A stretch of DNA of 64,000 bases from a virus. Shown here one piece after another: positions 45,605 to 63,222 of the stretch (the first letter of the stretch is position 1; each line of letters opens with the position of its first letter). The position numbers and the translations under genes were made by a program. The DNA lies in the IMG/VR virus record IMGVR_UViG_3300009158_000001, positions 64,001 to 128,000 of that record; one strand, 5' to 3'. The notes under the pieces were generated by a model. It was not told the DNA's origin, ran no database searches, and saw only the letters and a program-made list of their open reading frames with translations.

Positions 45605-48600
45605 TATCGTCTTTCCTTACCACGGCCTCGGTTTCTTTGCATGCTGCCCATTAATGCAGCCTGTTGCATCTCTGCCATCATTAATTTTCTACTATTACCA
45701 GACTCAGAAGAAGTAATAGGTGTAATTGAGTTGAGCTGAGAACTAGAACTGGTTAAGTTATTTATACTATTTAACTCTGGAGATTGATCATATCTTTCAA
45801 TCATTTGAGACTCAGATGTGCCTGGGCTTTTATCAAAATGAAAACGATTATAACTAAAAGCACTTAAAGTATTCCATCCTTTTCTTTCAGCTCCACCCAT
45901 TCCGCTTTGAGCTCCAAAATAGAAAGGCTGACTCCACATGCCCTTGCCTTTGCTTTTTGCAGAGTATTCAGCTTGCATATAAGCTGTTTGGCTAACTAAA
46001 TCTTCCGTAGATTTTTCTCTAAAAAGAACTGAACCAAGTCCCTGCTTAACCATTTCATATGAATAGTTTGTTCCTTCTTGGTCTGTTATAAGACCAACTG
46101 AACGACCAAAAGTTTGTCTTCCGCCAACTACAACTTGAGATCCTGTTCTTGCAGATAAAACATTTGTTAAGTAATTTTTACCAGGTTGAGCATATGCCAT
46201 TTCTCCTGGCCCAGTACCTACTCCTTCGTGAGCTGTTTCAGGGGTGTCAATGCCAGATACGCGCACACTACCTAGCTTTCTTCTGCCCATGCCAAGAAAG
46301 CCTTTGCTAATCAATTCAACTGTATCACCGTCACCAACCGCGTAGTCAACCTTTGCACCATCAACTGCCTGGAGTGCAACACCAGCATCATTTGTTTTGT
46401 CAATTGGTGCAGTGTATGAAGTCAAAGCACTCTTAATATCTCCGCCAGCGGCATAGTTACCGCCTTCTAAGATTTGTTTCTCATCACCACTCTTTTTTAA
46501 AATTGCTTCAGTTGTTGGTTTCCAACTAGGTTGATCAATCATGTAATCGGCTGCAAGAGCAAGCCCAGCACCAACTATTCCACCTATAGCACCAGCAGTT
46601 CTTCCTACATTAGAAACAAACCAACTTGCGTCTTTCAGCGCAGATACCGCAATCTTTCCTCCCGCACCCGCAGGAGAAACAGCATTCGCAAGAAACCTAT
46701 CTGCGGTTTCTCTCTGTAGTTTTATTTTTCCTAATCCTTGCATTGTCAGGCTAGCCATCGCCTTAAAGTGACCAACACTTTGAGGTCTTGCAAATTTAAC
46801 AGCACTTAAAGAACTACTCAATTCATGTAGTCCTCTACCTAGACCTCCTATAGTCAGACCATATCCCTTAGAGGAAACATTCTTAAAAATTTGATCTAGA
46901 GTTCCTTTAGTCTGTTCTATTATTTGCCGGGTAAGAGCTCCATCACCTTGATCAAATCTCAACTTTAATTCATCAGTCAATTTCTGTCCAAGACTTCCAT
47001 TTGGTTCCCGAAGTCTTCCTGTTAAAGTCTCAAACCTTTCCATCAAACTTTCTGGAGTTAATCCCCTACTCGCAATGCTTTCACTCTCAGCATACTGCCC
47101 AACCATATGTTCAAAAACACGCCTATGCGCTGTTTCCGCACTTGCACCGCCTGCAATCAAGTCTGCGTGCATTTTCTTCATATCGTCTACTAGATGATAG
47201 TCATGCGTCTTATTAAAGAAAGAGTATGTTGCTCCATCCTTTGTAACTTTTTCATGCCGGACTTGGCCTTGTCGAGTTCCAAGGTTAAATGGCTCGTAGG
47301 CATCAGTCTGAATATTGATTGGTTCAGTGTGATATTGAATTTCACCACTCAAATCAGCAACTGGCATAGGCCTATTAACTATAACTTCATCTACTATGCC
47401 TTCCGCGTTTTCTAATTTAATAACCTTTCCTGGCTTTTCATCTGGATAAGGCAATTCTCTTTTGATAATAGGATTACCTTCTTCGTCCAATTTTAAAGCA
47501 TCAACAGTTAATTCCTTTTTTGCATCAAACAAAGATGCTTGTCCAGATACCAGATTAGCAGTCTCATGAATCCTAAGAAGTTCCTTGTCAATGTTGTAAT
47601 TTTTTGTTACATCACCTATTGTTCCCTGATTCCATCTGGCAAGAAGAGGATTTGCACTGCTTTCATCTACATCAAAAAGAACTCTACCTTGTGCATCTGT
47701 TGTTATAGGCTCAAGTTCCGTATCTTTCAAGTATGAAGTAAGACTTAGCCATCCTCTTTTCTTGCTGTCAAACAGTATACTTGTTGCCGCAATAAGGGAC
47801 TTCATCTGTCCACCAATTGACGCGGTTTCTTTTCCTTGGTTTACGGTATAGACATCTTTAACTGTTTCATACAGTTTTGCATCTGTTAAAAGTTTTCCCT
47901 GAAGAACTGTGTCCATCAAAGCTAAATGCTCTTCCTTTGCTCCATAGAAGGCCCTAGATGCCCAGTCAATTTTTGTACCAGAAAATACATCTGGCCCTGT
48001 TGGAATATATCCAGTTTGCATAAGACCAGAAAATAACATCTTAGTAAGTTCAAGCTGATCTTTGTTATGAAGTCCTTGTCCTATATTTTTTTCCCACATT
48101 GGGAAAAGACTAATCATTTCATTGGTTTTCCCTTCCATTCTTAATCTATCCACACCTTGTGTATAGTGATAGTTGGTAGGATCCATAATGTTTCTTTTAT
48201 ACTGTGACTTCCAGTATGCATCAAACATTTGTCTAATTTCTGATAGATCTTGAATTCCTTCTGGTCCAGTCCTGAAAGCTTTCATAATATCAGGATCTTG
48301 ATTTAAAGGAACACGGTCCTCTGGGAACATTGCTACATTGTAATTGCCTTTGAAATCCCTGACATGCGCTCCTATTCCGTCATCTGCTGGTCGAATAACA
48401 GATATCTGTCTTTCTCCTGCGTCATCCACAGAAGGAACAATAGCGGTAAAGAATTTATTCTTGTTTGGTAATTTGCTTTTATCAGAAACATTCTGGGTAA
48501 AGTATTCCCAAAGTTTGCCAAGTCTGAAGGATTCAAAGGTCATATTTGCAGCAATTAATGCTTTATTATTGTCACTTCCTTGCTTCGCAAATATCATAGA

Positions 48601-49593
48601 CCACTTAGCAGCTTCTCTTTGGCTATAAATACGCTGGCCGTCTGCAAGTTCAACAAACCCTTGCTCTTCTAGTTTTTTAAAGATGCCTGTAATCTTCTCA
48701 TCATCTATGGCACCATCAGCACCTGCATTTTCTTCATAGAACTTTTTAAGGAAATCATATTTACTTTCTGCCCATCCTCCAAAGAGTGTTCTGAAACTAT
48801 CTAAGCTTTCAGGGGTGTGCTCAACAACTCTATATGTTCTTTCTCTTGCTTCACCTGCGGCATTCTCCGCTGCAGTGTCAGTAAGCAAAGCAGTAGGCAT
48901 CATATCTAAAGCAAGAAATCCTTTTTCCATTTGCTCAGAAGGTGACATCCGAGTAATCGAAGTTCTACCTTCTTGGGTTGAAATTAACTTGTCGATCTGA
49001 TTTAGATTTTCCATATCAATCATGGCAAGCTGAAGTATTGGAGCATTTCTTCCAAGACCACCAGTCTCAATGTCCACAATCATAGCATTTCTAATAATGT
49101 CAGGTGTCTTAAAGTTAAAGACTGACATTGCCGAAAGTTTTAATTTTAAATCCCTAATGCCTTGACTTGAAGCTCCACTCAGTATTTGTCCAAAAGTATC
49201 GCCTTGGCCTGCTGCAGCATAAGATGCTAATTTCGCAGTTACATCTTTAAATAATGCTGTCTTTTCTGCAAGTACAGTCTCTGTAAAGTTAATAAAGTTT
49301 TTACCAGGAGCAGCACCAATTAACTGTGCGCCCTTGCCTATCGCAGTATCTGTAGCAGTCATCAAGTACTGCTTGAAATTAGTCTTATCGTTTAGCGCTT
49401 TAACAACCTCAGATCCAAATCTGAATGTTCCTTTAGCAATACTTTTAACAAGAGTAAAAGTACCACGTGCACTAGCATCAACTTCAGAAAGATAGTTACT
49501 ACCTCTGTACTTGCCTGCCAAAGCAGTGATTCCTTTTATAGGATCTGCATCTGGATTTAAAAGATAATCTTTTAATGTGTATGCAGAGGCCAT
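45604..49593 (-). CDS. DEDDh 3'-5' exonuclease-like plus staphylococcal nuclease (SNase) fusion
   Basis: IVDIETGG (ExoI), ANMTFE (ExoII-like), HLALMD (ExoIII); C-terminal DGDT, RVSGIDTPET, FGR, MVKQGL and AKSKGKGMW SNase motifs. Confidence 0.75.
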   Translation of the reverse strand: MASAYTLKDYLLNPDADPIKGITALAGKYRGSNYLSEVDASARGTFTLVKSIAKGTFRFGSEVVKALNDKTNFKQYLMTATDTAIGKGAQLIGAAPGKNFINFTETVLAEKTALFKDVTAKLASYAAAGQGDTFGQILSGASSQGIRDLKLKLSAMSVFNFKTPDIIRNAMIVDIETGGLGRNAPILQLAMIDMENLNQIDKLISTQEGRTSITRMSPSEQMEKGFLALDMMPTALLTDTAAENAAGEARERTYRVVEHTPESLDSFRTLFGGWAESKYDFLKKFYEENAGADGAIDDEKITGIFKKLEEQGFVELADGQRIYSQREAAKWSMIFAKQGSDNNKALIAANMTFESFRLGKLWEYFTQNVSDKSKLPNKNKFFTAIVPSVDDAGERQISVIRPADDGIGAHVRDFKGNYNVAMFPEDRVPLNQDPDIMKAFRTGPEGIQDLSEIRQMFDAYWKSQYKRNIMDPTNYHYTQGVDRLRMEGKTNEMISLFPMWEKNIGQGLHNKDQLELTKMLFSGLMQTGYIPTGPDVFSGTKIDWASRAFYGAKEEHLALMDTVLQGKLLTDAKLYETVKDVYTVNQGKETASIGGQMKSLIAATSILFDSKKRGWLSLTSYLKDTELEPITTDAQGRVLFDVDESSANPLLARWNQGTIGDVTKNYNIDKELLRIHETANLVSGQASLFDAKKELTVDALKLDEEGNPIIKRELPYPDEKPGKVIKLENAEGIVDEVIVNRPMPVADLSGEIQYHTEPINIQTDAYEPFNLGTRQGQVRHEKVTKDGATYSFFNKTHDYHLVDDMKKMHADLIAGGASAETAHRRVFEHMVGQYAESESIASRGLTPESLMERFETLTGRLREPNGSLGQKLTDELKLRFDQGDGALTRQIIEQTKGTLDQIFKNVSSKGYGLTIGGLGRGLHELSSSLSAVKFARPQSVGHFKAMASLTMQGLGKIKLQRETADRFLANAVSPAGAGGKIAVSALKDASWFVSNVGRTAGAIGGIVGAGLALAADYMIDQPSWKPTTEAILKKSGDEKQILEGGNYAAGGDIKSALTSYTAPIDKTNDAGVALQAVDGAKVDYAVGDGDTVELISKGFLGMGRRKLGSVRVSGIDTPETAHEGVGTGPGEMAYAQPGKNYLTNVLSARTGSQVVVGGRQTFGRSVGLITDQEGTNYSYEMVKQGLGSVLFREKSTEDLVSQTAYMQAEYSAKSKGKGMWSQPFYFGAQSGMGGAERKGWNTLSAFSYNRFHFDKSPGTSESQMIERYDQSPELNSINNLTSSSSQLNSITPITSSESGNSRKLMMAEMQQAALMGSMQRNRGRGKERR

Positions 49594-49605: not shown

Positions 49606-50919
49606 TTATTCATCATAGTCAAAGGGATCATCTTTATTATCTCTTATTAGACTATTAATCTTACTTAATGCAGCAGACATTTTTGTCATAGTTGAACTAA
49701 CACTCTCAACCTTAGTAGACTCCATCTTAGCCTTAGCATTTAACTTGGCTTCTGGGGTGCTTAACAGTTCCTTCATTAGCTGACTGCGCATCTTTTGGAA
49801 ACGTTCCTTTAACGCAAAAGCAGGATGTTCCTTCATCGCAGTCTTAACAGGATTGCCGTGTAAGTCGCTACTTAGTACAGCCTCCTGCATCAAGTCTCTA
49901 CCCTCGCCAAGGCTATCTCCTTGACTTAATAGCATATTAACCCGGATCTCATAGATATCCAGTTCGGCAAGCTTAGTCGCCAAGCTAATAACACTAGGAG
50001 TAATATTATTCATATCTCTAAAGTTCTCACTACAGTATTGCTTAACCTTAACCTGGAGAATACTTGCTTCTACGGGGCAAGGTTGCAGTACTGGGAATTT
50101 ACTAGAGGCAAGATCAACACTTCCATTGTCTCTCTTAACAGCAAACCAGCATGAGCTGCGAATAGGGCAACTCTCATATCCTTTACATATTAAGGGCACA
50201 CTAGCATAAGTACCATGCTTAACAGCAGCAAGGTGCGACCTCATTCTAGCAGCACTCTGAGGTGTTATATGTAAGTCCTTATATAAGTCAGGATCACTAC
50301 CAAGAAAAGTCCCAAGACTACTGTTAGAGAAGAAAGCATTAACATCTATAGTATTAGGATCACTGGCGTCTAAGGCACTCTGAAAAGCTTCCTTAAGACT
50401 GATACTCGTAGCACTACTTTGATCAAGAGGCTCAGCCCTCTCTAGTAAATCTAAGTCACTATCTAGTATCTCCCCCACCCTATCAAGTAGCACTTGTGTA
50501 CTGGCCTCCACGCCGCCAAGACCATTAGTATTACGGTTCCCAGAGACCATACTAGAGTCCTTTAACAGGGGGCTAGTCTTAGTAAAGGACTTATCCTCAC
50601 TGATAGACATCTCCCTAGTAGGAAGGCCCTTTGCTGTCTCAGCTACGCTAATGTTAGTATCCTCTAAAGCCTGTAAGTCAAAAGGCATACCGTCTTCCTT
50701 AGGGGAAAACTCTAACGAGTTCCCCAAGGTGTATGGGTCAATAACTTGTCCAGATAACGTTCCAGTATAAGTAGGCTGAGAAAGCCGCGCCGCATTCTTA
50801 TATAGATTATCGGCTCCACGCCCTGCACTGTTGTCGTGGGAAGATCTAGGCTTCTTACCATTAGCCTTGTTTATATCATTGTAATGAGCCAAAACAGAGT
50901 ACTTCTTACTAGTAATCAA
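49606..50919 (-). CDS. Cys-motif protein, possible terminase small subunit
   Basis: First gene of the late arm; CKGYESCP..SC...CPVE and a helical C-terminus with EHPA. TTG start is uncertain. Confidence 0.35.
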   Translation of the reverse strand: MITSKKYSVLAHYNDINKANGKKPRSSHDNSAGRGADNLYKNAARLSQPTYTGTLSGQVIDPYTLGNSLEFSPKEDGMPFDLQALEDTNISVAETAKGLPTREMSISEDKSFTKTSPLLKDSSMVSGNRNTNGLGGVEASTQVLLDRVGEILDSDLDLLERAEPLDQSSATSISLKEAFQSALDASDPNTIDVNAFFSNSSLGTFLGSDPDLYKDLHITPQSAARMRSHLAAVKHGTYASVPLICKGYESCPIRSSCWFAVKRDNGSVDLASSKFPVLQPCPVEASILQVKVKQYCSENFRDMNNITPSVISLATKLAELDIYEIRVNMLLSQGDSLGEGRDLMQEAVLSSDLHGNPVKTAMKEHPAFALKERFQKMRSQLMKELLSTPEAKLNAKAKMESTKVESVSSTMTKMSAALSKINSLIRDNKDDPFDYDE

Positions 50920-51268
50920 ACTAAAGTTTAAACTTTATTAACTTGATACCATAAGGAGCCTTATATATGTATAAGGACAAAACCTCTATATATATTTGGG
51001 GAAAAAATCTAGGGGAAAAGCTAGGGGGAAAGGGGTATAGGTCTGGGAAAGACGTAGACTTGCCTAAAGAACTCTATATAGGTTTATATATTTATATTTT
51101 TATTTTTATGGAAAAGAGTGGGTACTTTATATACTGGGACCCTTAAACAACCCATACCCCTATTCGTTTTAGCCCACCCCCTTTAAACGTAAAACTCTGA
51201 CCGTTAGGGTGGGACATTGGGTTCCAAAAAGCCCTGCAATTGAGCAGGCACGCGTCTAGGAGTCTGCC
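50920..51268. promoter_or_regulatory. Divergent intergenic control region at the compositional boundary
   Basis: AT-rich with TATATA runs and clustered G-runs, followed by a structured leader and the AGGAG SD of the giant ORF. Confidence 0.5.
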
Positions 51269-54200
51269 ATGACTATTGCCCTTATCGTCCTCGCCATCTT
51301 CGTCTGCATTGTCATCCTTTCCAACACGGTGAGCTATCTCATGACCGCCAACAAGACCGCGCCCATCACCCCCGCCGAGGTTCGTATGAACAACAACAAC
51401 CACCCCCTCATCGTCCTGGCCATCGTCACCCTGGTTGTCATTGGTGGCCTTGTCACCTTCGGCATCGGCAAGACTGCTGGCCTGTGGGCTCAGCCCTCCT
51501 TCGAGGATCTCGTTGACCCCTACGCTGTCGCTGAGTATGAGCAGGTTGCCCTGCGCATTACCAGCTTCCCCCACCCTGGTGTTGGCCAGTACTCGCCTGA
51601 TGAGGGTACCAATTGCACGGGCTGGGCCTGGAAGGGCCACATGTACGGCATTACCCATTGTGATGTCGACACATACATCATTGGCAAGGAGACGGGTGAG
51701 ACCCCTGATCCAGTGGTCCGTATCAACACGGATCACGTTGTCAGTGTCCCTGTATTGGGCAATGACCTCTACACCGTTGGCATGGAATGCAGCCCTGACC
51801 TTCGCTGGTGGGGTGCTACCACTGGTGAGTGGCGTAACCTCGATTGGAGCGACATCGACGTTGAGACATTCAGCCCTAACAACCGCGCTGCTAGCCTCAT
51901 GCTTGAGCGCTGGCATGGTAGCGTAAACCGAGCACAGGACGCACTGGCTCAGCAGAACGAGTACAGCGCTAGCCTGTACACCAACACCGCCCTGTTCCAG
52001 CAGGGTGAGTGGGAGATCCTTAGCAAGGGTCAGCGCTACTGCTACGACAGCCAGGATGATGTGGTTGGCCATGGTGGCTGGTTCCGTAGTGGCGATAGCG
52101 GTGGTGTCCTTCTCGCAGGGGATGAGCCCATCGGCGCTGTTAGCTACAGCAACGGGTCTGAGACCCGCAACTGCTTCAGCGCAATTGCGTTGTCGCAGGA
52201 GAAGTCCTACCAGGACTTTGAGTTCCGGGAACTCTCTTCGACCACCATGGACCTGACTGGGAAGTTCAAGACCGCTGCTTCCCACTCGGGTATGCAGGGG
52301 CGGATTTTCCGTAGCCTCAACACCGAAACCACCAACGCCCATCAGGGCAAGGAGAATTTCATGCCTTACCTCATCCTCGCCATCCTCGGCCTCATCCTCG
52401 CTGCCGCCACCACGACCATCAAGGTCAAGGAGTTTCTCATGTCCAACCTTCGCACCATCGTCATTGGTTTCCTGATTGTCCTGGGCCTTGTGGTCCCGAT
52501 CGTTCTGGCGTGGAACCACGCCCTCACGGTTTGTCCTGTCACGGACGCATGGTTCAGTGTCAACTTTATGAACGGTGCCCTGGTTAGCATCGTCGTTGAA
52601 ATGGCTGCAATTGCGGCTGTTCTCGCCATGGCAACGCTTATCTCTGAGATGAGCTGCCCAAAGTGGATGGTTAAGCCTATCCTCGCCATCACCCCCAACC
52701 TTGCCACCATCACGGCCAATAAGGCCAAGGAGTCTGTCATGCCTATTCGCCTGTACATTGCAATCATCCTCACAATCGCCATCTTCGTCCCCATGGCGCT
52801 TATCGCCACCTTCCGAGAGGCCTTCGTGTGTATCTTGGGCCTTGGCCCCCTTGCATTCACGGCTATTGACCTCATTCTGCATGTGGAGTACCACTACCAT
52901 GTGCGTGAGCTTTCTATCGTGACCAAGAAGCTCATCGCCCACCAGAAGCTGCACAAGCTGCTCTTTGGCGGTATGGCTCTTCTCGCCATGGTTCTTGGTG
53001 GGTGCGGCGATACCATCCAGCAGGCTCCTGCTGGTATGGGCGAAATCGTCGCCGCTCACAACGGCGAATGCAGCGCCTTCCACTGGCAGGGCCAGATCAG
53101 GACGGCGGCTCACTGCACCTATGCCAGCACCGATTGGCGGGACAACGCAACAGCCGTTCTTCACCAGCAGCAAGGAAAGCATGCTATCCCAGAAGACTTG
53201 GCAGATATCGGCCAAGAGTGTAGCCCCGACCTGCGTTGGTGGGGTGCCACCACTGGTCGGACTCTGCCTGTGGAGGACGTCAAATTCTACGCTGTAAAGC
53301 GTGGGCAAAACGTCTGGGACCTTGGCGAACAAGTTCCTCCATGGACTCCTGGAGCACAGGCCTGCTTCACCCAGACCCTGCACAACCGCTTCTCCGACGG
53401 AGATAGCGGAGGACCCCTTCTCGCCGGTGATGAGCCGGTGGGCAGCGTCTCCTGGAGCAGCAACCTGCCTTGGGGCATGGCCTGCTTCGGCCGACTGGAA
53501 AAACAACCAATGTGGGGAAATCTCTCCACGTCTTCCCCGCAAGGGGGTAAGGGCTTCCGCATGAAGTCCATCGAAATGACTGACAGCCTCGCTGTCACTT
53601 TGACCCAGGTCTTCACGGACCTTGCCATTGCAGGAGCAATCCTGGCGCTGGCCTTCCTTCTGGCCCGAGTCCGGGCCAAGTTCCGCACGCACGACGAAAC
53701 CAACGCCGGCAATTCTGCTGGCCTCATTGGGGCTAAGAACCCCAGTAAGGGACACATGTCCCCCATTTTGGCCTTCGTGGCCCGCCTGACGAGCGTAATC
53801 GTCATCCTCCTCCTTGGTGTCTGCCTGCTGGCAGCACCCGGCGTGACCCCGCTGGTCTCTTCGAACAACAGCCCGACCATCGAGACGGGCATCGACCCTG
53901 AGGCCATTGCCAAGATTGTCCAGCGCTTGAAGAAGCGCCTGGCGTACGGCATGCGGATGGCCAAGAAGAAGCGGTGGACCGTGCGTCGCTTGAACCGCTG
54001 GCTCGTTGCAAACGGTTACAAGGCCAAGGCCAAGAAGGCCAAGAAGGCGGTCGCAAAGGCCGTTGTCAAGTTTGACCGTGCGGGTATGACCCGCCGTCAG
54101 CGTCGCGCAAAGGCCCATAAGGCCAAGGTTGCAGCAACGAAGGCAGAAACCAAGGCTCGTGGCGTTAAGCGCCGCGCAGAAGCCAAGGCAACGAACGACG

Positions 54201-57200
54201 CAATCGCCAAGCTGGAGGCTGCGATTGCCTTCCTCGGGCTCATTGCCCGCGTGGCCCGTCACCAACGGCGCATGGAAGTGTCGGCTGCGCGGTCGAAGCG
54301 CAAGGTGGCTCGCAAGGCCACTGCTAAGCCCGCCGCCAAGAAGATCATTGTCAGGGCCGAGGGTGCAGGTCGTCCCACCTTCCACCCCCGCCGCAGCAAA
54401 GTCCAGGGATACAACCCTGCCGCACAAAGCCGACAGGAGATCATCACCTCACGCGAAAAGCGGGAAGAGCGTCGCCTTGCACGCGAGGCTCGGCACCTCA
54501 CGCTCCTTAATAGGGCATATGCTGCCCTCCTCAACATGGTCGTTGAGGGAACGGCATTCAAAGCAGGCTGGACCCTTCGAGGTGCATGCATGCTGCTGGC
54601 GGACAACATGGCTTGGGTTGCCGCCCAGGCCGAGATCCAAACGTTCGATCAAGATGACGACGTGGCCTGGCAGTATGAGGCAGCCGTCCGCAACATCCCC
54701 TTCGAGATTAAGCGGGAGGTTGAGAACGCAGAGGTCGACGCAGCATGGGCGCTCATCGAGGCCAACGACAAGAAAGTCCTTGCCGAGATCAAGCAAGCGA
54801 ACGCTAAGGCGCGGGCCAAGAGGAAGGCAGAGCGTGAAGAGCGCATTGCCACTCACAGGGCGAAGGTCGACGCAGAGCGGGCCGAACGTGAAGCCGCCAA
54901 GGCCGTAAAGGCCGAAGAGCGCAGGAAGCGGGAAATGGCAAAGGCGGAGCGCCTGGTTGAAGCCCTCAAGGCCCGTGAGGCCAAGAAGGGCAAGACCACC
55001 AAGGTGGATGTTACTCCTGTGTCTCCCGTGGCTAAGCTGCGGGAAGTCCAGGCAAACAGCCCCGTTCTCGCCGTTGTCGCAGGTCTTGGGCTTGCGACTG
55101 GCATGGTGGCCGTTGCCGTCATTGCCCTTGCTGCAATTGCCTTCTTCGCTATTCGCAAGAATCGTGCCGAAGACTGCAAAGAAGAAACGGTCGACGCAGA
55201 TTGGGGCGATCTGCTTGAAGCTCCTGCTGAGCCACAGCCCCAGTCCCTGTTGCTGCGTCTGACAGAGCTCTTGGGCCAAGAGTCTCCTGCGCGGGAGGTT
55301 GTTGCATATGAACCTGCTCCTGCACCAGTTACTGTACCTGCCGAGCCAGAGCCGCAATCTCTTCTTGGGCGTCTTATTGAGCTTCTGCCTGAGGCTGAGG
55401 CGCGTGCTACTGAGCCTGCCACCTGCGCTTGCGGAATACCGCAGGAAGAAGGCTACGTCTGCGATACCTGCGTACTCAATGAGTATGCTGCTGGTATGGC
55501 AAATGCCCTCGAAAATGCGGTCGAAGAGTTTCCCTTCACCGATCCTGGTGACTGGGATGGCGGGGCAATCGATGACGTGTATGCGGCTCAGCTCATGGCG
55601 GCTGACCGTGAAGCCGCGCAACGCGATGCGGCAGACTTGGAAGAGCACCTGCAGGTTCTTGCGGCAGAAGCTGCTCTTGCAGACCTCGACCAGGAAGCAG
55701 AACAGGACATTGATCCGCTAGATCTTCTAGTGGAGAAGGCCAAGGAGGAAGAGATGGAAGAGGAAAAGACCCCTGAGCAGGTCTGGGCAGAAATCTGCAA
55801 TGAGCTGACGGTATCCCCTAGGAACTACTCGGCTAATGCTGCAATGAACATCTTGATTGAGATGTATCAGCGCAAGATTGACCTGTTCCGTTTCCGCCAT
55901 TTCGGCACTACTCGTACGTTCACCCGCAAAGACAAAGACGGGGATAGGCGTACCAGTAAGACAAAGACTCTGCGCAAGGACGTTATTGTCCGGTTTGCCA
56001 GCATCCTGCGTCAGGACAAGGAGATGGCAACGTGGTTTGCGGAAGCAAGTCACGATCCCTCTTGGGAGCAGTTCTGGGTTGGCATCGAGTCCCTTATGAA
56101 GGACAAGAAGCAGGCTTGGACTGCCCAGGATTGGCGTATCCTTCGAGCCAGGTACGAAGCGGCTGTCTTGGTCGTTAACGACCTCTGCATCGAGTTCCTC
56201 GGTCAGTCGAAGAGCAAGCCAAAGTTCATGGCAAGTGAAGTCTCTTGTCTTGTAACCAAAGACACCTTCCGCTACCGTGCAGTTGGTGCGCAGGAAGCGA
56301 TGGAAGCCTGCAAGCGCATTAACGCAAAGCACAAAGGTGGCTTCTGTGTGGCTCGTGGTGTCTACCAAGAGCAAATGCTTAGCGGCTCTCACCTGCCCTG
56401 GGTTGTTGATAAGGCTGACGGGGAAGGCAACTGGCTGGAGTTTGGCTTTGTTCTCACCACCAGCGCTGGTGTTGCAGACTGGGGCTTTGGCCGTGAAAAC
56501 CGCAACAATAGCAGTGTTGAGCTGAAGACTGCCACAGAAATGCTTGGTGGAATTGTCCAGCTTGATCAGTACAAGCCAGAACGTGCGTACATCGAGATGT
56601 TCCACAAGAACTGGACCTTGATGAAGAAGCCCAGCCTTAACGACTGGAAGACTTTCATTAAGACAGCCTTTGCCAATGGCAACATGTTATTCATTAACCC
56701 AACGACAATGGATACCAGGCATGTCGCCAAGAACGGCACCAGTTACAGTAAGTCTGTAACTGACAATGGCACAACAGCCAGCACGGTCCATACTTTCTTC
56801 AACGATGGTAGCGTGACCACGGTAATGACGCGCAAGACTCTTGATGCAAATTCGAAAGGCTTTGCTCACAAGTTCAGCAGTGCGCGGACGACTATCAGGA
56901 AGTTCTTCTTGAAACACTCTGGTATTCGTGATCTCAAGGTTCTTCCTTGGGAAGTTGTCGAAAGCCGAGATGAGCTGGCAACAAAGTTTGGCAATGAGTC
57001 GTATGACCAATACCAGGCATGCCGTAAAGCAATCTCTGCTGATCGCAATCATCGGCTAGACGTTGTAGTTCTTAGCCGCGTGAACAATGCACGGTTTGAG
57101 GCTTGGGCTACTGAGTATGTGCAGAATAAGCAATCATCGGTTGTTTATCACATCAAGACTCGGCAGCCTTTGACGCTCAGCCAGCTCAACAAGCAGAATA

Positions 57201-60200
57201 AGGCCCTTGCAAAGCTGCAGGGTAATTACTTCTTGGCTCAAACTGAGTTGGAAACTAGCCGCGCTGGTATTGCAGCCATTAGGCATACGATTGAGACGAG
57301 TGCTTATACGTCTCAAGAACTGTCTTCTGATTTGATTGAGGCCTTCAAAGAAGGTTACCAATGGATGAAGACTCCTGGTGGCTATCAGTTGGTTAGCGCA
57401 AGAAAAGCTGCAGCAAACCCAGAGAAGATTCTCAAGGGCGAAGCTCTTGCTGCTGTGCTGGATGCGTGGATCAAGACTGCCATTGACGTTCAGGCAGACT
57501 CTCTTCGCGCAGAGGGTGCGAAGATTGTGCGCAGGTACGAAGAAGCACTTCAGCTTCTGCTTCCTGGGTACAGCTGCAAGGTCAATGGTGAGGATTGTCT
57601 CATGGCTGCATACAATAAAGCAGAACATGCGAAAAAGACAGACCCCAGCAATCCTGAGATTGCCTTGCTTCTTGCAGCGTACTATGCGGAGTACGAGAAA
57701 GAGCAAGCGGAGTACGAGAATGAGCAAGCGAAAATCCAAGCGCGTTACGAGAAAACCCATAAGGAATGTCAGGAGTATGAGCAGCGCGTTAAGGAGCAGG
57801 AAGGATGGGATGAAATCCCGTTCTGTAAAGCAGGTGCCGTTCTTTCGGCATTGGCTCTTGCAGCTGGGCTTCCTGCCTTCGTGGTAGTGTTGCCGCTTGC
57901 ACTGACGGCACTGGCTGCTTTCATGAAGATGGAAAACTCTGACGTTGAAGGTGAGGAGATCCTCGCTGACAATGCAGAGTTCTGCCTGTACAGTACACCA
58001 ATTGTCCGTCACACAACAGGCAAGTGGACTGCAGTCAAAGACAACAACACTGGGGAATCCGCCCCAGTCGAAGCTGGCGAAAGCCAGAAGGAGAAGCCCA
58101 TGAGCTTCCTTGACAAGATGAACCAGACCATCCGAAATGTCTGGAACGAGCTCACCGGCCGTGAGAGAATTGGTACTGACGTGAAGACCAAGGCACCTGC
58201 CACGTACGGCTCTATCCTTGCTGCCAGCAAGGTTGAGCACACGGCACTTACCCGTATCTGCGGTGGTAAGATCCGTGAGATGCAAGTCACCGAACTCAGC
58301 AGTGAAGAGCTGCGTGAGATCAAAGACTTCATCCGCCGTGATGGTGACACCTGGATCATTGTCCGCGACTCTCAGAAGTTCCACTTCCCGAACTGGGCAA
58401 TGGAGAAGCTGGTGTCTGAGATTGTGATTGCAGGTCACGCTGTCGACAAGAAGGTCAGCCAGCAGGAAGTGAATAAGTATTTCGGCAGCTTGCTTTGGGC
58501 TCCTGCTGAGATTGTTTCCTTCCAGGCTAGCGAAGCCAAGGTCATGAGTGATGGGCTTGCCGCCATGTACGACGGTACCAACCTGATGAGCGATGAGCTT
58601 GCATCGACTATCGACTGGGTTGGCTATGCAATTCGTCGACTGCTTACGGTACTCGGCTTGTTCAAGGGTATGTTCATTATCCTTCCTGCTGGGTACTTCC
58701 CGTCTGGGGTCAAGCTATTCGGCAGTGAGGTGAAGAAGCACCTTCGTCTGCGTCGGGATAGCGGTCGTGCACTTGCACTGCAGCCTCAGGCTAACGGTCA
58801 CAGTGATGTGGCTAGGACTCTAGGCATGCAGCTTTGGTCCATGCTGTTGGGCCCCTGGATTGCTAGTGTTGGTTTTGCCAATCTAGCGAAGGGAGCGTAC
58901 GGCTATGCAATGTCGAACCTGAACAAGGCTAATGAGCGTCTTCTTGCTCCTGCAGAGGAAGAAGAAGAAGGCCGCGATGCCTTGATGGCTGAGGCTAGCC
59001 GCCTGCACGGGTTCAATCCAATTGCTGTATTCAGGTCTTTTGCGACCAGCATGGCAAACGGGCTCACGAAGTCCTTCAATCCCAACAAGGTGAACATTGC
59101 ACCTGTTGACGAGAAGGGCAGAAGCCTTGTGCCAAACGGCTATCCGATGATGCTGCCTTGGCTTGCGCTGGCAGAGCTGTGGCTCAAGGTCACGGGCAAA
59201 GTGCCAGAAGAGCTTGCTAAGAAGGTTGAAGATACCGAAAAGCTTCGTCTGCGGCTCTTTAAGCTTGCGAACGGCGCAATTCCAGTGCTTGTGCACAACA
59301 TGCACCGCCTTGATGCGGCTAAGGTTGCAGGCATTCGTCGCATGGCTATTGCTGCTATTGCGACTCGCATCCCGACTGGCAAGACCAGCGGTATCGAGGT
59401 TATGCTCTTCGACGCAGAAGAGTATGGGGCAGATCTACTGCCTGAGATCGTTGGCCGTAAGAAGAACGACATTGAGTTCTGGCTCTTCCCTTGCGAGGAG
59501 ACCACGGCCTTCAAGGTTGCTTCTGAGGGCGGCGACGACGACGACCTGTACGAGTTCCTCCTGGGAATTCTGCACAAGCTGGCTCGCCTTGGCCTTGAGT
59601 GGCGGGCAAAGATCCTCGATGTGAGTGCCGATACGCAAAAGGCCATGGACGAAATCAAAGTTCGCTTTGCTCGTCAGGTGGCAGCATTCAAAGAAGACCG
59701 TAAGCTTCTTGCAAAGCTGATGGAGATGCCTTATGCAAAAGTCTTCACGGCAAATGGCAAGGTCAGGGCAGGCTGGCCGTCTCTCTTGGGTGTTACCATG
59801 GCACCAGGTGGATGGCAGATCCGTCACACGGAAGCTGTTGAAGATATCATCGTGATGACCGAGGAGTCCCGTGAAGATATCGCCACCCAGGCTCGCCTCT
59901 TTGCTGAGGTAATGACAGCAAACAACGACAGCCCGTTCACCAGCGCCATTGGCACTGTTGCGCAGAGCCACAAGTTTGCCACTGGCATCTTGACTGGAAA
60001 CGTTGTGCTGACGAACAGTATCGGTGCTCTGGATAAGATCTGGGCACTCTTTGTTCTTGCTACCATTCTGCTGTCGGATATGGTAGACGCTTGCAACAAG
60101 GGCAAGAAGTACGCAGAGGCTGGTGCTGCACTCATGTACCTTAACTGGGCATGGGGCTGGCTGTGCTATCGTATTGCTAGCAATCCAGATGCTAAGGTTA

Positions 60201-62560
60201 TCTGCCCTGCGCAGTATCTAGTATCTGTGCCTCCTGCTGCCAAAGAGCTGTTCAACGCACGTCATGCTAATAAGATGACTGTTGATGGCAAAGTTGTTCA
60301 GCCGGGCAAGCTTCTCAACAATCTCTATGAGAACCATAGAGAGCTTGGCGAGACGGTCGAGGCTATGATCCGCGAAGAGCACAACCGTGCTGAGTTCTCG
60401 GCTACGGTAACTGCGATGCTTCAGACTGTTAGCGTTCCTGTGCCTGGGGCTGCTTCTGCTCAGGGTATGGGCTCGGAAGTCTGGGCTGAAGTCTGGACTG
60501 CAAGCGGCCGCAAGAAGATCTACCTGGATGGTCTCAAGCAGAAGTCTGCTATGAGGTTCGAAGACATTCGGGCAGAGCAGCGTTACATGGCAGAACTCAA
60601 CAATGCAACCGTCTACGCAGCACATGCTGAGTTTGACCGTATTGTCATGGGTCGCCTTGTGAAAGCTGATCCTAACGCTACTAGTGAGGAGATTGCAGCT
60701 ATGTTCAAGCTTTGCAAGCTTGGCATGGTCTACTCGTATGCTTTCAAGACTGTTGGCTACGAAGAGAACTGCGTCAAGATCCTTATGGATGAAGAGGGAG
60801 AGTTCGGCGCTTCTGGCGGCGTTCCTACCTACATCATCCCTGTCAGCGGCAACTGCACCTTTATCGGCAACTTTGCAGGTAGCAGCGAGATCCTCCTTGA
60901 GTGGATGATGAATCCTGCTACACTCGCACTTGTTGCTGAGATCAAAGCCAAGGCTGGCGACTTCAAGTACGTCGTTCTCTCCATGAAGGGTGAAGCCTTT
61001 GGAGAGATGATTGACGGCGGTCGTGACCTCAGGTACAGCGAGGCTGACTTTGATGGCAAATCCATCACGGAGATCCTCTGTATGCCTGGCGTTGCTCTTG
61101 CTGGCAATCAGCGTGAAGAAAGCCACGTTGATCAGAGCACCTGGCTTGCAAGTGTAGCAGACACGGTCACGCAACGTCGCAACGACATTCTTCGCAAGCT
61201 GAAGGCGGAGAACAAAGCAGCAGAAGCATTGCTTCGCGGCAAGACTTTCGGAGAGCTTCTTCAGGAGTTCAACGTAACGGTCGTCGCAGAGTCCGTCACT
61301 GGCACTGCCAAGGTCGAAAAGATCGAGGCGTTCAAGTGGATGGACAAGAAGCATGCGGGTCGTACGTACCCAAACACCTTTGTCATTGTTCGCTTCGGGA
61401 ATGAAGCAGATCCTGTGACTGAGGAGATGGAAGAGGATGATATTACCATCTTCCTTGCTGACGAAGTGATTGAGGCTGCTCCTGACACCAAGGAGAACAT
61501 TACGATCGAGGCCTCTGCTCCTGTGGTTGAAAAGACTGCAGAAGCAAAAAAAGACAGCATAAGCGATAAGCTCAACCGCATCTTCGGCAAGAAGGAGGCT
61601 GTTAAGCCCCCTGCTCCTATCGAAGTCGTGCCTGCTGCTGTTGTTGCGGCTGCTACTGGACAAGAGGAGCTCAAGATCCTGAGCATTTCTGAGCCTGCCT
61701 TTGCGAAAGAAGGATGGTCCCAGACCAGCGAAGGAAAGCTTGTGCGCCGCACTTTCAGCAAGACCAAAGTCAAGGAAGTCTTTGCTGCTGGCTGGAACTT
61801 CTGCTTCTGCGAGGGCGATGGAGACAAGTGGGTCATTGCAGACACCCGCTTTGGTTTTGTCATTGGCCGCGGACAGACTCAGGTCATAGCGTTGCAAAGG
61901 GCAATTGCAAACACCCAGGCTGCTAAGGTTGGACGCAACCTTCTTGACGAAGTCCAGTTCTCGAACTGGCTCTTTGACCGTGCAACTCAGGCTCAGCGTC
62001 CGCTTGTTGACCTGATTGCAGAGCACAACAAGAAGGAAGAGCCCGTGGCCGAGGCAACTCCTGCTACTCCTGTTGTTGTCGCAGAGACTGCTGGTACTAA
62101 GCCTACTAGCCGTTGCGTTGGTAACTTCGCATTGGCTGGCCTTCAGCACTCTAGTAACGTCAATGTTGCTGAGCGTGAGCTTGTTGAGGGCGTAAAGATT
62201 ACTCTCATCCGCAATGTGGCTCACCCCAAGGATGCAAATGCCGTTGAGGTCCATGTGAATGGTTACCGCTTCGGGTATGTTCCTAAGGAAGCCGCTGCAA
62301 GGCTGGCTCCTCGGATGGACATCGGCGTGAAGGCGTGGGCCATTGTCACGGGATGGGAAAACGGGTACGCCCGCTTCGATCTGTTCCTTGGCAAGACGCC
62401 CACTACCTTGGAGACGTTCAACTACCAGCGTGACGAAATCGAGCGTGCATGCGAGGGGCTTGCCTGGCTGGAGTCGTACGACGCGACCGATGAACAGAAG
62501 GCTCCGGCTAATGCCCTCCTTGCGCACTTTGCTGCCCTTTGTGGTAGCCTTAAGCTCTGA
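51269..62560 (+). CDS. 3763-aa polyprotein: TM peptides, 2 chymotrypsin-like proteases, basic/coiled-coil and acidic regions, two-barrel RNA polymerase-like domain, HIRAN
   Basis: Uninterrupted frame with consistent codon bias and AGGAG SD; motifs are itemised in the sub-features. Confidence 0.85.
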   Translation: MTIALIVLAIFVCIVILSNTVSYLMTANKTAPITPAEVRMNNNNHPLIVLAIVTLVVIGGLVTFGIGKTAGLWAQPSFEDLVDPYAVAEYEQVALRITSFPHPGVGQYSPDEGTNCTGWAWKGHMYGITHCDVDTYIIGKETGETPDPVVRINTDHVVSVPVLGNDLYTVGMECSPDLRWWGATTGEWRNLDWSDIDVETFSPNNRAASLMLERWHGSVNRAQDALAQQNEYSASLYTNTALFQQGEWEILSKGQRYCYDSQDDVVGHGGWFRSGDSGGVLLAGDEPIGAVSYSNGSETRNCFSAIALSQEKSYQDFEFRELSSTTMDLTGKFKTAASHSGMQGRIFRSLNTETTNAHQGKENFMPYLILAILGLILAAATTTIKVKEFLMSNLRTIVIGFLIVLGLVVPIVLAWNHALTVCPVTDAWFSVNFMNGALVSIVVEMAAIAAVLAMATLISEMSCPKWMVKPILAITPNLATITANKAKESVMPIRLYIAIILTIAIFVPMALIATFREAFVCILGLGPLAFTAIDLILHVEYHYHVRELSIVTKKLIAHQKLHKLLFGGMALLAMVLGGCGDTIQQAPAGMGEIVAAHNGECSAFHWQGQIRTAAHCTYASTDWRDNATAVLHQQQGKHAIPEDLADIGQECSPDLRWWGATTGRTLPVEDVKFYAVKRGQNVWDLGEQVPPWTPGAQACFTQTLHNRFSDGDSGGPLLAGDEPVGSVSWSSNLPWGMACFGRLEKQPMWGNLSTSSPQGGKGFRMKSIEMTDSLAVTLTQVFTDLAIAGAILALAFLLARVRAKFRTHDETNAGNSAGLIGAKNPSKGHMSPILAFVARLTSVIVILLLGVCLLAAPGVTPLVSSNNSPTIETGIDPEAIAKIVQRLKKRLAYGMRMAKKKRWTVRRLNRWLVANGYKAKAKKAKKAVAKAVVKFDRAGMTRRQRRAKAHKAKVAATKAETKARGVKRRAEAKATNDAIAKLEAAIAFLGLIARVARHQRRMEVSAARSKRKVARKATAKPAAKKIIVRAEGAGRPTFHPRRSKVQGYNPAAQSRQEIITSREKREERRLAREARHLTLLNRAYAALLNMVVEGTAFKAGWTLRGACMLLADNMAWVAAQAEIQTFDQDDDVAWQYEAAVRNIPFEIKREVENAEVDAAWALIEANDKKVLAEIKQANAKARAKRKAEREERIATHRAKVDAERAEREAAKAVKAEERRKREMAKAERLVEALKAREAKKGKTTKVDVTPVSPVAKLREVQANSPVLAVVAGLGLATGMVAVAVIALAAIAFFAIRKNRAEDCKEETVDADWGDLLEAPAEPQPQSLLLRLTELLGQESPAREVVAYEPAPAPVTVPAEPEPQSLLGRLIELLPEAEARATEPATCACGIPQEEGYVCDTCVLNEYAAGMANALENAVEEFPFTDPGDWDGGAIDDVYAAQLMAADREAAQRDAADLEEHLQVLAAEAALADLDQEAEQDIDPLDLLVEKAKEEEMEEEKTPEQVWAEICNELTVSPRNYSANAAMNILIEMYQRKIDLFRFRHFGTTRTFTRKDKDGDRRTSKTKTLRKDVIVRFASILRQDKEMATWFAEASHDPSWEQFWVGIESLMKDKKQAWTAQDWRILRARYEAAVLVVNDLCIEFLGQSKSKPKFMASEVSCLVTKDTFRYRAVGAQEAMEACKRINAKHKGGFCVARGVYQEQMLSGSHLPWVVDKADGEGNWLEFGFVLTTSAGVADWGFGRENRNNSSVELKTATEMLGGIVQLDQYKPERAYIEMFHKNWTLMKKPSLNDWKTFIKTAFANGNMLFINPTTMDTRHVAKNGTSYSKSVTDNGTTASTVHTFFNDGSVTTVMTRKTLDANSKGFAHKFSSARTTIRKFFLKHSGIRDLKVLPWEVVESRDELATKFGNESYDQYQACRKAISADRNHRLDVVVLSRVNNARFEAWATEYVQNKQSSVVYHIKTRQPLTLSQLNKQNKALAKLQGNYFLAQTELETSRAGIAAIRHTIETSAYTSQELSSDLIEAFKEGYQWMKTPGGYQLVSARKAAANPEKILKGEALAAVLDAWIKTAIDVQADSLRAEGAKIVRRYEEALQLLLPGYSCKVNGEDCLMAAYNKAEHAKKTDPSNPEIALLLAAYYAEYEKEQAEYENEQAKIQARYEKTHKECQEYEQRVKEQEGWDEIPFCKAGAVLSALALAAGLPAFVVVLPLALTALAAFMKMENSDVEGEEILADNAEFCLYSTPIVRHTTGKWTAVKDNNTGESAPVEAGESQKEKPMSFLDKMNQTIRNVWNELTGRERIGTDVKTKAPATYGSILAASKVEHTALTRICGGKIREMQVTELSSEELREIKDFIRRDGDTWIIVRDSQKFHFPNWAMEKLVSEIVIAGHAVDKKVSQQEVNKYFGSLLWAPAEIVSFQASEAKVMSDGLAAMYDGTNLMSDELASTIDWVGYAIRRLLTVLGLFKGMFIILPAGYFPSGVKLFGSEVKKHLRLRRDSGRALALQPQANGHSDVARTLGMQLWSMLLGPWIASVGFANLAKGAYGYAMSNLNKANERLLAPAEEEEEGRDALMAEASRLHGFNPIAVFRSFATSMANGLTKSFNPNKVNIAPVDEKGRSLVPNGYPMMLPWLALAELWLKVTGKVPEELAKKVEDTEKLRLRLFKLANGAIPVLVHNMHRLDAAKVAGIRRMAIAAIATRIPTGKTSGIEVMLFDAEEYGADLLPEIVGRKKNDIEFWLFPCEETTAFKVASEGGDDDDLYEFLLGILHKLARLGLEWRAKILDVSADTQKAMDEIKVRFARQVAAFKEDRKLLAKLMEMPYAKVFTANGKVRAGWPSLLGVTMAPGGWQIRHTEAVEDIIVMTEESREDIATQARLFAEVMTANNDSPFTSAIGTVAQSHKFATGILTGNVVLTNSIGALDKIWALFVLATILLSDMVDACNKGKKYAEAGAALMYLNWAWGWLCYRIASNPDAKVICPAQYLVSVPPAAKELFNARHANKMTVDGKVVQPGKLLNNLYENHRELGETVEAMIREEHNRAEFSATVTAMLQTVSVPVPGAASAQGMGSEVWAEVWTASGRKKIYLDGLKQKSAMRFEDIRAEQRYMAELNNATVYAAHAEFDRIVMGRLVKADPNATSEEIAAMFKLCKLGMVYSYAFKTVGYEENCVKILMDEEGEFGASGGVPTYIIPVSGNCTFIGNFAGSSEILLEWMMNPATLALVAEIKAKAGDFKYVVLSMKGEAFGEMIDGGRDLRYSEADFDGKSITEILCMPGVALAGNQREESHVDQSTWLASVADTVTQRRNDILRKLKAENKAAEALLRGKTFGELLQEFNVTVVAESVTGTAKVEKIEAFKWMDKKHAGRTYPNTFVIVRFGNEADPVTEEMEEDDITIFLADEVIEAAPDTKENITIEASAPVVEKTAEAKKDSISDKLNRIFGKKEAVKPPAPIEVVPAAVVAAATGQEELKILSISEPAFAKEGWSQTSEGKLVRRTFSKTKVKEVFAAGWNFCFCEGDGDKWVIADTRFGFVIGRGQTQVIALQRAIANTQAAKVGRNLLDEVQFSNWLFDRATQAQRPLVDLIAEHNKKEEPVAEATPATPVVVAETAGTKPTSRCVGNFALAGLQHSSNVNVAERELVEGVKITLIRNVAHPKDANAVEVHVNGYRFGYVPKEAAARLAPRMDIGVKAWAIVTGWENGYARFDLFLGKTPTTLETFNYQRDEIERACEGLAWLESYDATDEQKAPANALLAHFAALCGSLKL
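51560..52190 (+). other. Chymotrypsin-like serine protease domain 1 (within polyprotein)
   Basis: CTG...ITHC (His 51656), NDLY (Asp), GDSGG (52091-52105). Confidence 0.8.
53030..53490 (+). other. Chymotrypsin-like serine protease domain 2 (within polyprotein)
   Basis: CSA...TAAHC (His 53111), EDLA (Asp), GDSGGPL (GDSGG at 53399-53413). Confidence 0.88.
58100..60400 (+). other. YonO / cellular RdRP-like single-chain two-barrel RNA polymerase domain
   Basis: Ordered motifs DGTNLMSDELA (58571), IR...FKG (58661), RIP (59366), GGDDDD (59528-59545), IGTVAQSH, VDACNKG (60083). Confidence 0.65.
62120..62395 (+). other. HIRAN domain at the polyprotein C-terminus
   Basis: LAG...LIRNVAHPKDANAVEV..NGYRFGYVPKEAA..LA matches the HIRAN L.RE..N..D.NAI.V...GYVP pattern. 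Confidence 0.8.
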
Positions 62561-62567
62561 GGTTACT

Positions 62568-62840
62568 ATGAAGGAGATCCTCATGAAGTACATGGGTGGT
62601 GCTAAGTATCCTGGTCCTTGCCGCAATTGCAGCCGCTACTGTGGTTGTGATACACTGCGGCTCTTCCGAGATGACCGATATAAGGCAGCGAAGTGGGTCA
62701 CAATCTGCACAGATTGCTGTGAAGAATGGGATGCCCGCTTCAACAAGCCCAAGGCCATTGTGGCTCCTCAACCTGCTCCTGTAAAGGAAGTGAAGGTTGT
62801 GGAAGTCGCTAAGCCAAAGCAACTTTCGTTGTTCGGCTAG
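62568..62840 (+). CDS. Small Zn-finger protein with C-terminal beta-clamp-binding motif
   Basis: GAGG SD with ATG 62568 (alternative AAGGAG with ATG 62583); CRNC...CTDC; ends QLSLFG. Confidence 0.7.
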   Translation: MKEILMKYMGGAKYPGPCRNCSRYCGCDTLRLFRDDRYKAAKWVTICTDCCEEWDARFNKPKAIVAPQPAPVKEVKVVEVAKPKQLSLFG

Positions 62841-62884
62841 AGAACTGACAGTTTGAACTAAAGCCCTATTCTACAACCCTTTTC

Positions 62885-62913
62885 AAAAGAGCTCACTTTG
62901 TGAGCTTTTTTTT
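62885..62913 (+). terminator. Rho-independent terminator ending the polyprotein operon
   Basis: AGCTCAC-TTT-GTGAGCT followed by a T-run. Confidence 0.8.
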
Positions 62914-63222
62914 ACTACTTACTTACAGAGGCCAAACGACTCCGCTACTCCGCTCCCCCTCGAAAGCCTGTGTGTATTTTGTAATTTCTGCACCCCCTTG
63001 GAGAGGCTCCTGCGTCGCCCAGAGCATTGTAGGCTTCGCTCCCTGGCAACAAAGCTAGACCAACGAGAGGTCTGGTGGGCCTCCTGCGTCGGCCAGATAT
63101 AGTGAGCGTTCACGCTTGCTATACTGGCGGATCCGTCCCAGTAGATGCGAGAGATAACGGATAGGTACCTCCCAAACGTCTACCTTGTCGGGTGTGGGAA
63201 GGCCGAAAACGCTGACAAGGAA

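Follow-up and report, generated by a model that had tools for sequence, protein, structure and literature searches.

A giant stop-free reading frame in a freshwater phage appears to join separate genes and may retain an internal start for its RNA polymerase

The window analyzed here is a stretch of 64,000 nucleotides, bases 64001–128000 of a single 174,107-bp contig (IMG/VR record IMGVR_UViG_3300009158_000001) from a tailed phage, whose minus strand carries the terminase, portal, major capsid and tail sheath genes. On the plus strand of the window, at 51269–62560, lies a giant open reading frame (ORF) that ends in an RNA polymerase (RNAP) module and a HIRAN domain. Comparison with related phages strongly supports an origin of this ORF by in-frame, stop-free joining of separate genes. 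We favor the reading, at a probability of roughly 60%, that former cistrons were fused with their starts retained, and that a free RNAP-HIRAN protein is made from an internal ATG at 58100 beside the full chain.

The fusion is traced through more distant relatives that share the locus, which is defined by a large gene with a staphylococcal-nuclease (SNase) domain, a gene of ~440 aa on the opposite strand and a GC-rich plus-strand block. At this same synteny, L004 carries six separate genes with stops and spacers, encoding 130, 290 (trypsin-like), 176, 137, 506 and 1944 aa (RNAP-PIF1). L007 has two genes, of 388 aa and 1563 aa (RNAP-YpsA), and L008 also has two, of 945 and 3024 aa, the TAA of the first overlapping the TAAGGAG Shine-Dalgarno (SD) motif of the second. 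The proposal of the first-pass annotation, that ancestral genes were fused while their initiation sites were kept, is well supported by these arrangements. Met40, Met391 and Met2278 of the window chain are true gene or ORF starts in relatives, and the start of the 290-aa protease gene of L004 aligns no more than 2 residues from Met40. A Metallophos module is likewise a gene start in L008 and internal in L002, L003 and L011.

The joint in front of the polymerase is the most informative one. The Met encoded at 58100 occupies a single column in a ten-member alignment, where it is the first residue of the stand-alone polymerases of L004 and L007. In eight of eight fused ORFs, AAGGAG, AGGAGGT or AAGGAGG (6–7 nt) lies 4–6 nt before the aligned ATG. 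The residues encoded at the joint vary (KEKP, QEVN, KEGN, KEGK, KEAK), the remaining linker is not alignable, and the unfused L004 and L007 genes carry GGAGGT or AGGAGGT in untranslated DNA before the RNAP start. Therefore, the shared feature is a nucleotide motif and not a peptide. The motif persists across lineages whose RNAP cores are only 28–55% identical, with the same purine core in the eight fused ORFs, so that the SD-ATG pair at 58100 is conserved beyond the need of the protein sequence. This conservation is the strongest argument for selection of 58100 as a ribosome-binding site (RBS). Judging from these alignments, use of 58100 as an internal start, yielding a free RNAP-HIRAN beside a presumably membrane-anchored full-length form, is on balance the likelier case.

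The features of the giant ORF are as follows.

51269–62560, plus strand: giant ORF, 3763 codons, no internal stop; first gene of the GC-rich plus-strand block.
51258–51271, plus strand: true RBS and start, AGGAGTCTGCC-ATG; in-frame TAG 4 codons upstream; 5' leader kept in L001–L003 though the first module differs.
51377–51388, plus strand: internal GAGGT-N4-ATG, Met40; start of the module of signal-anchor and trypsin-like protease 1.
51467–52360, plus strand: trypsin-like protease 1; GDSGG at 52091–52105.
52349–52363, plus strand: internal AAGGAG-N6-ATG, Met365; start of a 26-residue single-helix module; position kept in L001–L003.
52427–52441, plus strand: internal AAGGAG-N6-ATG, Met391; start of a 100-residue membrane module.
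52727–52741, plus strand: internal AAGGAGTCTGTC-ATG, Met491; start of a two-helix module leading into the lipobox and protease 2.
52994–53005, plus strand: lipoprotein-type lipobox L-G-G-C, after a basic stretch and a hydrophobic helix; no ATG or SD of its own in the window phage.
53006–53560, plus strand: trypsin-like protease 2; AAHC at 53105–53116, GDSGG at 53399–53413.
53548–53563, plus strand: internal TAAGGG-N7-ATG, Met765; start of a single-helix module; Met and upstream nucleotides kept in L001–L003 and L008.
53746–53758, plus strand: internal TAAGGG-N4-ATG, Met830; start of a helix and basic region; SD and ATG within a stable local hairpin.
53822–55096, plus strand: Ala/Arg/Lys-rich low-complexity region, then a helix and an acidic region.
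55742–55756, plus strand: AAGGAGG-N5-ATG, Met1496; probably arisen by chance within a Glu/Lys run; Met missing in L001–L003.
57815–57925, plus strand: 37-residue hydrophobic segment (one helix or a hairpin), conserved, directly before the RNAP module.
58088–58102, plus strand: internal AAGGAG-N6-ATG, Met2278; start of the RNAP-HIRAN module, 1486 aa.
58316–60328, plus strand: two-barrel RNAP catalytic core; RIPTGKTSG at 59366–59392, GGDDDD at 59528–59545, SDMVDACNKG at 60074–60103.
62126–62347, plus strand: HIRAN domain, Pfam PF08797.

The first-pass annotation had pointed to eight SD-ATG pairs in frame with 51269, each at a module boundary. All eight are where it placed them, with ATGs at 51386, 52361, 52439, 52739, 53561, 53756, 55754 and 58100 (Met40, 365, 391, 491, 765, 830, 1496 and 2278) preceded at 4–7 nt by GAGGT, three times AAGGAG, twice TAAGGG, AAGGAGG and AAGGAG, in that order. 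By homology, seven of the eight do sit at module boundaries, but 55754 does not, as Met1496 is Q or E in relatives. This site had already been flagged as the weaker one, and rightly so: it is unique to the window phage, and its Met is unconserved in L001–L003. It is probably a chance motif, and an internal start there is refuted by the comparison. The resemblance noted between the 52739 site and the true start also holds, the two strings (AGGAGTCTGTCATG and AGGAGTCTGCCATG) being one base apart. In addition, the 52739 joint, AGGAGTCTGTC-ATG, is exactly the true-start RBS of L001 and L002, and its RBS string is found again ahead of a small gene that lies 2.9 kb past the giant ORF, beyond the window.

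Several counts set these joints apart from other Met codons. The pattern KExxM takes up 5 of just 20 Lys-Glu dipeptides, where 0.52 are expected (P=1.3e-4). An SD precedes 5 of the 8 Mets that stand directly before a hydrophobic helix and 5 of the 89 other Mets (P=1.9e-4), and in a comparison set of eight other large genes of the phage only 6 of 254 internal Mets have one (Fisher P=0.003). The internal sites look like the genuine RBSs of this GC-rich block. The true start has an SD–anti-SD duplex energy of -6.8 kcal/mol, and the internal sites span -5.2 to -11.7 kcal/mol. By a crude score that subtracts local mRNA folding from duplex energy, the true start is outscored by five internal sites, and 53561 is moderate. 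At 6 of 7 joints, against 16 of 89 control Mets (P=5e-4), the SD is immediately preceded on its 5' side by a small GC-rich hairpin with a stem of 4–5 bp and a loop of 4–7 nt; its copies are at 52337–52348, 52414–52426, 52714–52726, 53533–53544, 53729–53745 and 58075–58088, one with a GAAA tetraloop, and it is not kept at the RNAP joint of other lineages. The idea that the joints are fossil non-coding linkers was rejected, as the codons upstream have a normal coding GC content at third positions (GC3) of 0.75–0.81.

The stop-free state is itself shared. Giant homologues run for 3725 codons in L001, 4057 in L002 and 3963 in L003 from the first ATG (3966 from stop to stop in L003), and the open frame is kept in these three at 42–73% identity with a changed module order. 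The window phage and L001–L003 have a common 5' leader followed by different first modules: module A in the window and L003, and in L001 and L002 the module of window Met391, with homology beginning at the ATG, so that Met391 is the annotated giant-ORF start in both. The modules of the N-terminal 600 codons are arranged as A-B-C-D-E-F in the window and as D-E-B-X-F in L001. Since the RNAP cores of the two are 98% identical, the rearrangement is recent, and the frame was always preserved. This implies that cassettes were shuffled very recently, apparently at SD-ATG joints. Met365, 491, 765 and 830 are conserved with their SDs in L001–L003 and L008. At the Met365 joint, a Lys-to-Glu change leaves the SD intact (AAGGAGG versus GAGGAGG). 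The Met491 joint is identical in L001, has a different spacer in L002 (AAGGAGCCCGTC-ATG) and reads AAGGAG-N6-ATG at the homologous Met of L008; at the Met830 joint, the 18 nt upstream are identical in three relatives. As additions or alternatives to HIRAN, relatives carry PIF1 helicase, YpsA/DprA-like SLOG and Metallophos domains.

In the mechanism that we propose, seven of the eight SD-ATG motifs would be the retained RBSs and start codons of former cistrons. Read from its N-terminus, the chain would begin with several membrane proteins of one or two helices, followed by two trypsin-like proteases that each bear a signal peptide, a basic region and a conserved domain whose fold is unknown. 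A hydrophobic anchor would come next, and last a two-barrel RNAP of the QDE-1/YonO type with HIRAN at its end. The short joints may double as breakpoints for module swapping between phages. Initiation at 51269 would give the full chain, presumably anchored in the membrane. Ribosomes binding the conserved SD at 58088–58093 would start at 58100 and release a free RNAP-HIRAN of 1486 aa. As no stop lies in the frame, any internal start would run to 62560, giving a nested, C-terminally co-terminal set. Of the isoform ladder put forward in the first-pass annotation, the soluble RNAP from 58100 is plausible because its SD-ATG is deeply conserved, whereas the full ladder from all upstream starts, and with it use of the six N-terminal sites, is unproven. 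Speculatively, stops may be selected against because the polymerase is thereby held covalently at the membrane, or because a long early transcript is shielded from polarity.

A number of results weigh against the proposed mechanism or limit its support. The count of in-frame versus off-frame SD-ATG pairs, which the first-pass annotation had set as a check, came out flat: an SD of at least 6 nt precedes 6 of 97 in-frame and 3 of 99 off-frame ATGs (Fisher P=0.24), and one of at least 5 nt precedes 10 of 97 and 10 of 99. Strong off-frame pairs also arise by chance, and synonymous codon shuffles match the observed number in 47 of 500 and 134 of 500 trials. These generic tests are weak because AAG makes up 85% of the Lys codons and GAG 62% of the Glu codons, so that a Lys-Glu pair reads AAGGAG. 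Local mRNA folding does not differ between the joints and other Mets (Mann-Whitney P=0.39). The 58100 site itself has only a moderate RBS score, and 53756 has the worst of the eight, because its SD and ATG are buried and sequestered in a stable hairpin (local minimum free energy about -25 kcal/mol). The N-terminal modules are nearly identical in nucleotides among relatives, and their SDs may be young relics; since these modules are recent mosaics, the conservation of their SDs carries little weight. A quick RNAP tree speaks for fusion, with stand-alone polymerases broadly spread and fused ones in nested clades; this tree is midpoint-rooted with long branches, so that it does not prove fusion over fission. 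Finally, a search of sequencing runs for the phage listed freshwater or lake DNA runs only, and no RNA run. 

A stronger form of the proposal, in which the locus is a stop-less operon of in-frame cistrons, each with a working RBS, shuffled as cassettes at the RBS joints and read as programmed co-terminal proteoforms, is a tentative and rather doubtful idea. The main rival to internal initiation is a pure polyprotein. Here only 51269 would be used, the phage's own trypsin-like proteases and host signal peptidases would cut the membrane-inserted chain, and the motifs would be relics or recombination joints. The two protease modules have intact motifs, GDSGG in both and AAHC (as TAAHC) in protease 2, which speaks for this rival. 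Protease 1 is 38% identical to the stand-alone 290-aa protein of L004 (P0011), which has a precomputed PF00089 hit; a phmmer search of protease 1 against the PDB returned nothing. Protease 2 reaches 17.5 bits for Pfam Trypsin, under the cut-off of 20.6, with weak matches to S1 peptidases in the PDB (E 0.03).

The membrane topology also fits cleavage. Upstream of each protease lies either a signal-anchor or a lipoprotein-type signal that carries a lipobox. The latter, at about residues 552–579, has a basic n-region and a hydrophobic core and ends in L-G-G-C. In the window it lies 60–90 residues past Met491, away from the N-terminus and without an ATG or SD of its own, and the equivalent signal peptide in L002, L003, L008 and L011 directly follows a TAAGGAG or AAGGAG SD and an ATG. 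Such lipoprotein signals lie deep in giant ORFs (window 52994–53005; L002 3445–3520; L003 8315–8390). Should the full-length chain be produced, it could be cleaved at the lipobox by host signal peptidase II, a step that would resemble the host-signalase processing of flavivirus polyproteins. The repetition of AGGAGTCTGTCATG at module breakpoints, the lack of generic in-frame enrichment, the mRNA of the joints not being opened and the recent exchange of the N-terminal modules are likewise in line with a polyprotein. However, it leaves unexplained both the strong SD at the RNAP joint, kept among divergent cores with non-homologous linkers, and the module borders that fall exactly on Met, and no cleavage-site motif was identified. 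We regard exclusive polyprotein processing as a possible but rather unlikely account. Processing is compatible with internal initiation, the two not being mutually exclusive.

Selection of K-E-x-x-M as a peptide or a pause is very unlikely. The motif might be a protease site at the borders, or an SD-like pause that aids helix targeting, as most sites precede a hydrophobic helix and the motif is enriched at the amino-acid level. However, the RNAP joint has no following helix, and the residues vary (Q/K, then E, then G/A/V/K) with a constant purine core AGGAG(G). In addition, unfused relatives carry the same SD in untranslated sequence before the same Met start. Chance, by which Lys-Glu and Gly-Lys codons of a GC3-rich gene mimic SDs before ordinary Met codons, fits the shuffles (about 9–27% of trials reach the observed count), the equally frequent off-frame pairs and the unconserved 55754, but seven sites coincide with independently defined, conserved module or gene starts in relatives and the KExxM excess is large, so that this extremely improbable reading is refuted for those seven by the comparative data and stands for 55754 only.

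The identification of the C-terminal part as RNAP-HIRAN, made earlier from the letters alone, was borne out by fold matches for the polymerase and a Pfam score above threshold for HIRAN (PF08797, residues 3620–3693, 33.6 bits against a cut-off of 24.7). An AlphaFold2 model of residues 2350–3020 (21-sequence alignment) reached pLDDT 89 and pTM 0.86. Foldseek matched it to QDE-1 (probability 1.0, E 9e-6), and VIA Z scores were 13.2 for RDR2 (root-mean-square deviation 4.6, 433 residues aligned), 12.0 for P32 gp64 and about 9.6–9.7 for P23-45 gp96, with P74 gp62 also among the matches and the next unrelated rows at about 7. Our modeling thus supports a two-barrel RNAP of the QDE-1/RDR2/phage gp64 type, with RNA synthesis as its predicted activity. 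The invariant motifs are RxPTGxTSG, GGDxDD and SDxVDAxNKG. The candidate metal-binding acidic loop reads GGDDDD; all of 21 homologues keep three of its Asp (D-x-D-D), and the Gly of DxDGD is absent. Homologues are scarce, with 19 hits among 1.8 billion cluster representatives. On the giant protein, Pfam gave HIRAN and the sub-threshold Trypsin only; phmmer of residues 2200–3763 against the PDB gave marginal HIRAN hits only; among PHROGs only a HIRAN-like family of unknown function matched; and tblastn of both protein halves against 50,697 phage records found no match. Upstream of the polymerase, residues 1490–2185 (55736–57823) show 60% mean column identity across 6 homologues without a Pfam match, and an AlphaFold2 model of them from a 6-sequence alignment was unusable (pLDDT 49.8).

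The assemblies and DNA runs that contain the phage sequence are independent and all come from freshwater or lake metagenomes. The genome has a GC content of ~38%, and a ~20-kb block that opens with the giant ORF has 50–59%. This GC-rich island (window 51000–64000, extending to about genome base 135000; GC 0.50–0.59 against 0.38) has host-like codon usage and is also present in L004, L007 and L008. The giant ORF has a GC3 of 0.6–0.75, against 0.27 in structural genes, and avoids AGA, ATA, TTA, CTA, TCA and AAA codons. The phage tRNAs, all encoded beyond the window, are Arg-TCT, Lys-TTT, Pro-TGG, Thr-TGT, one with a CAT anticodon, Asn and Tyr; those for AGA, AAA, CCA and ACA serve codons that are frequent in late genes and scarce in the giant ORF. 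Because its codon usage follows the GC-rich non-structural block and not the structural genes, there is a hint, and only a hint, that the giant ORF may be expressed early on the host tRNA pool, unlike virion-packaged polymerases of the N4 or crAss type. A scan for sigma-70 promoters and terminators over the giant ORF was not informatively above shuffled expectation. An alternative code or hidden terminator codon was rejected, as the rare TTA, CTA and TCA are not at module ends and no constant codon stands before the joints. Avoidance of stop triplets in all frames was also rejected, off-frame TGA and TCA being abundant.

Two antisense frames are open, at 51143–54427 (minus strand, 1094 codons, codon-aligned to the sense frame) and 60218–62626 (minus strand, 802 codons), because only 11 of the 3763 sense codons are TTA, CTA or TCA. 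The 1094-aa antisense ORF was rejected as a real gene: compared with L003, the substitutions lie at third codon positions of the sense frame, and they are 53 synonymous and 37 non-synonymous in the sense frame, and 15 and 75 in the antisense. In L003, the gene caller split the giant gene, trimmed it to 2771 aa and annotated antisense ORFs instead. As a practical warning, gene callers break up such a giant ORF and replace it with antisense shadow ORFs.

Beside the RNAP locus, a 437-aa neighbor (49606–50919, minus strand) weakly matches the N4 virion-RNAP domain PF21769 (E 0.003, under the cut-off), and a 1329-aa neighbor (45604–49593, minus strand) has the staphylococcal-nuclease domain. Both adjoin the locus in every relative with enough flank. 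Three small genes downstream of the giant ORF have a near-identical palindromic RBS before the ATG, GTCCT(T/A)AGGAGGAC, at window 63824–63846 and, past the window end, at genome 130086–130108 and 131042–131064. The SD sits inside the hairpin, and this RBS may be a common regulatory element of the early block.

Single in-frame internal starts, giant polyvalent phage proteins and a two-barrel RNAP within a giant protein are already known. In-frame internal starts occur in T7 gene 4A/4B, lambda S107/S105 and phiX174 A/A*. They share with the window ORF an SD and in-frame ATG within an ORF, and products with a common C-terminus; however, known internal initiation concerns one site in one ancestral gene, and here up to seven putative sites stand at former cistron borders. 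Retapamulin Ribo-seq has mapped such starts across the E. coli genome (bioRxiv 10.1101/520783). According to PMC10770324, P23-45 gp96 is a tape-measure-fused virion RNAP of 5002 aa, and gp64 (P74-26 gp62, P32 gp64) represents non-virion RNAPs (PDB 8h2m, 8f5m, 8f72). Like these, the window enzyme is a single-chain two-barrel phage RNAP (Z 9.6–12.0), and like gp96 it lies within a giant protein. Unlike in gp96, it is C-terminal, behind membrane helices, proteases and a basic region, ends in HIRAN, and has the GGDDDD loop and an SD-ATG at its border. A term search of PMC10770324 found no mention of internal start sites or proteolytic processing for the P23-45 RNAPs. The best fold matches, the cellular RNA-dependent RNA polymerases QDE-1 and plant RDR2 (PDB 2j7n, 7y7q, 7w82; Z 12–13, 430–480 residues aligned), have the same motif order but are eukaryotic, stand-alone, ~11–12% identical and canonical in their DxDGD, as opposed to D-x-D-D here. 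The large single-chain two-barrel virion RNAP gp66 of crAss-like phi14:2 (PDB 6vr4) is a weak match (Foldseek E 0.03) and lacks membrane and protease modules.

Polyvalent proteins, as set out by Iyer et al. 2017 (PMC5512222), are giant multidomain proteins of phages and conjugative elements with peptidase and nucleic-acid-enzyme domains, for which autoproteolytic domain release is proposed and which include N4 virion RNAP-like examples. The window chain likewise combines unrelated effector domains (proteases, RNAP and HIRAN, to which relatives add Metallophos, PIF1, DprA and YpsA). However, Pfam did not find the signature domains (zincin MPTase, ArdC-N and others) in it; it has membrane helices and trypsin-like proteases instead, and the codon usage of the GC-rich non-structural block. 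A term search of PMC5512222 found no retained internal RBSs ('internal' occurs twice, never for start sites). In the literature, we found no description of a family that keeps up to seven former cistron starts in one stop-free frame and shuffles them as cassettes.

Even if the internal sites are inactive, the family captures several stages of gene fusion, with six, two or one gene at the same locus in different phages and with modules permuted between phages whose polymerase cores are 98% identical. It also adds a rare clade of two-barrel phage RNAPs, in which the GGDDDD loop is non-canonical and the polymerase is fused to HIRAN, PIF1 or SLOG, and the warning about gene callers stands as well. 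If the stop-less operon were true, a free RNA polymerase would be at one end of its product range and forms joined to membrane helices and periplasmic proteases at the other, and continuous ribosome cover might shield the 11-kb early transcript from polarity. If the internal sites work, this would be a new viral way to encode several proteins, distinct both from an operon with stops and from a classical polyprotein, in which one frame yields the phage RNA polymerase both free and membrane-tethered.

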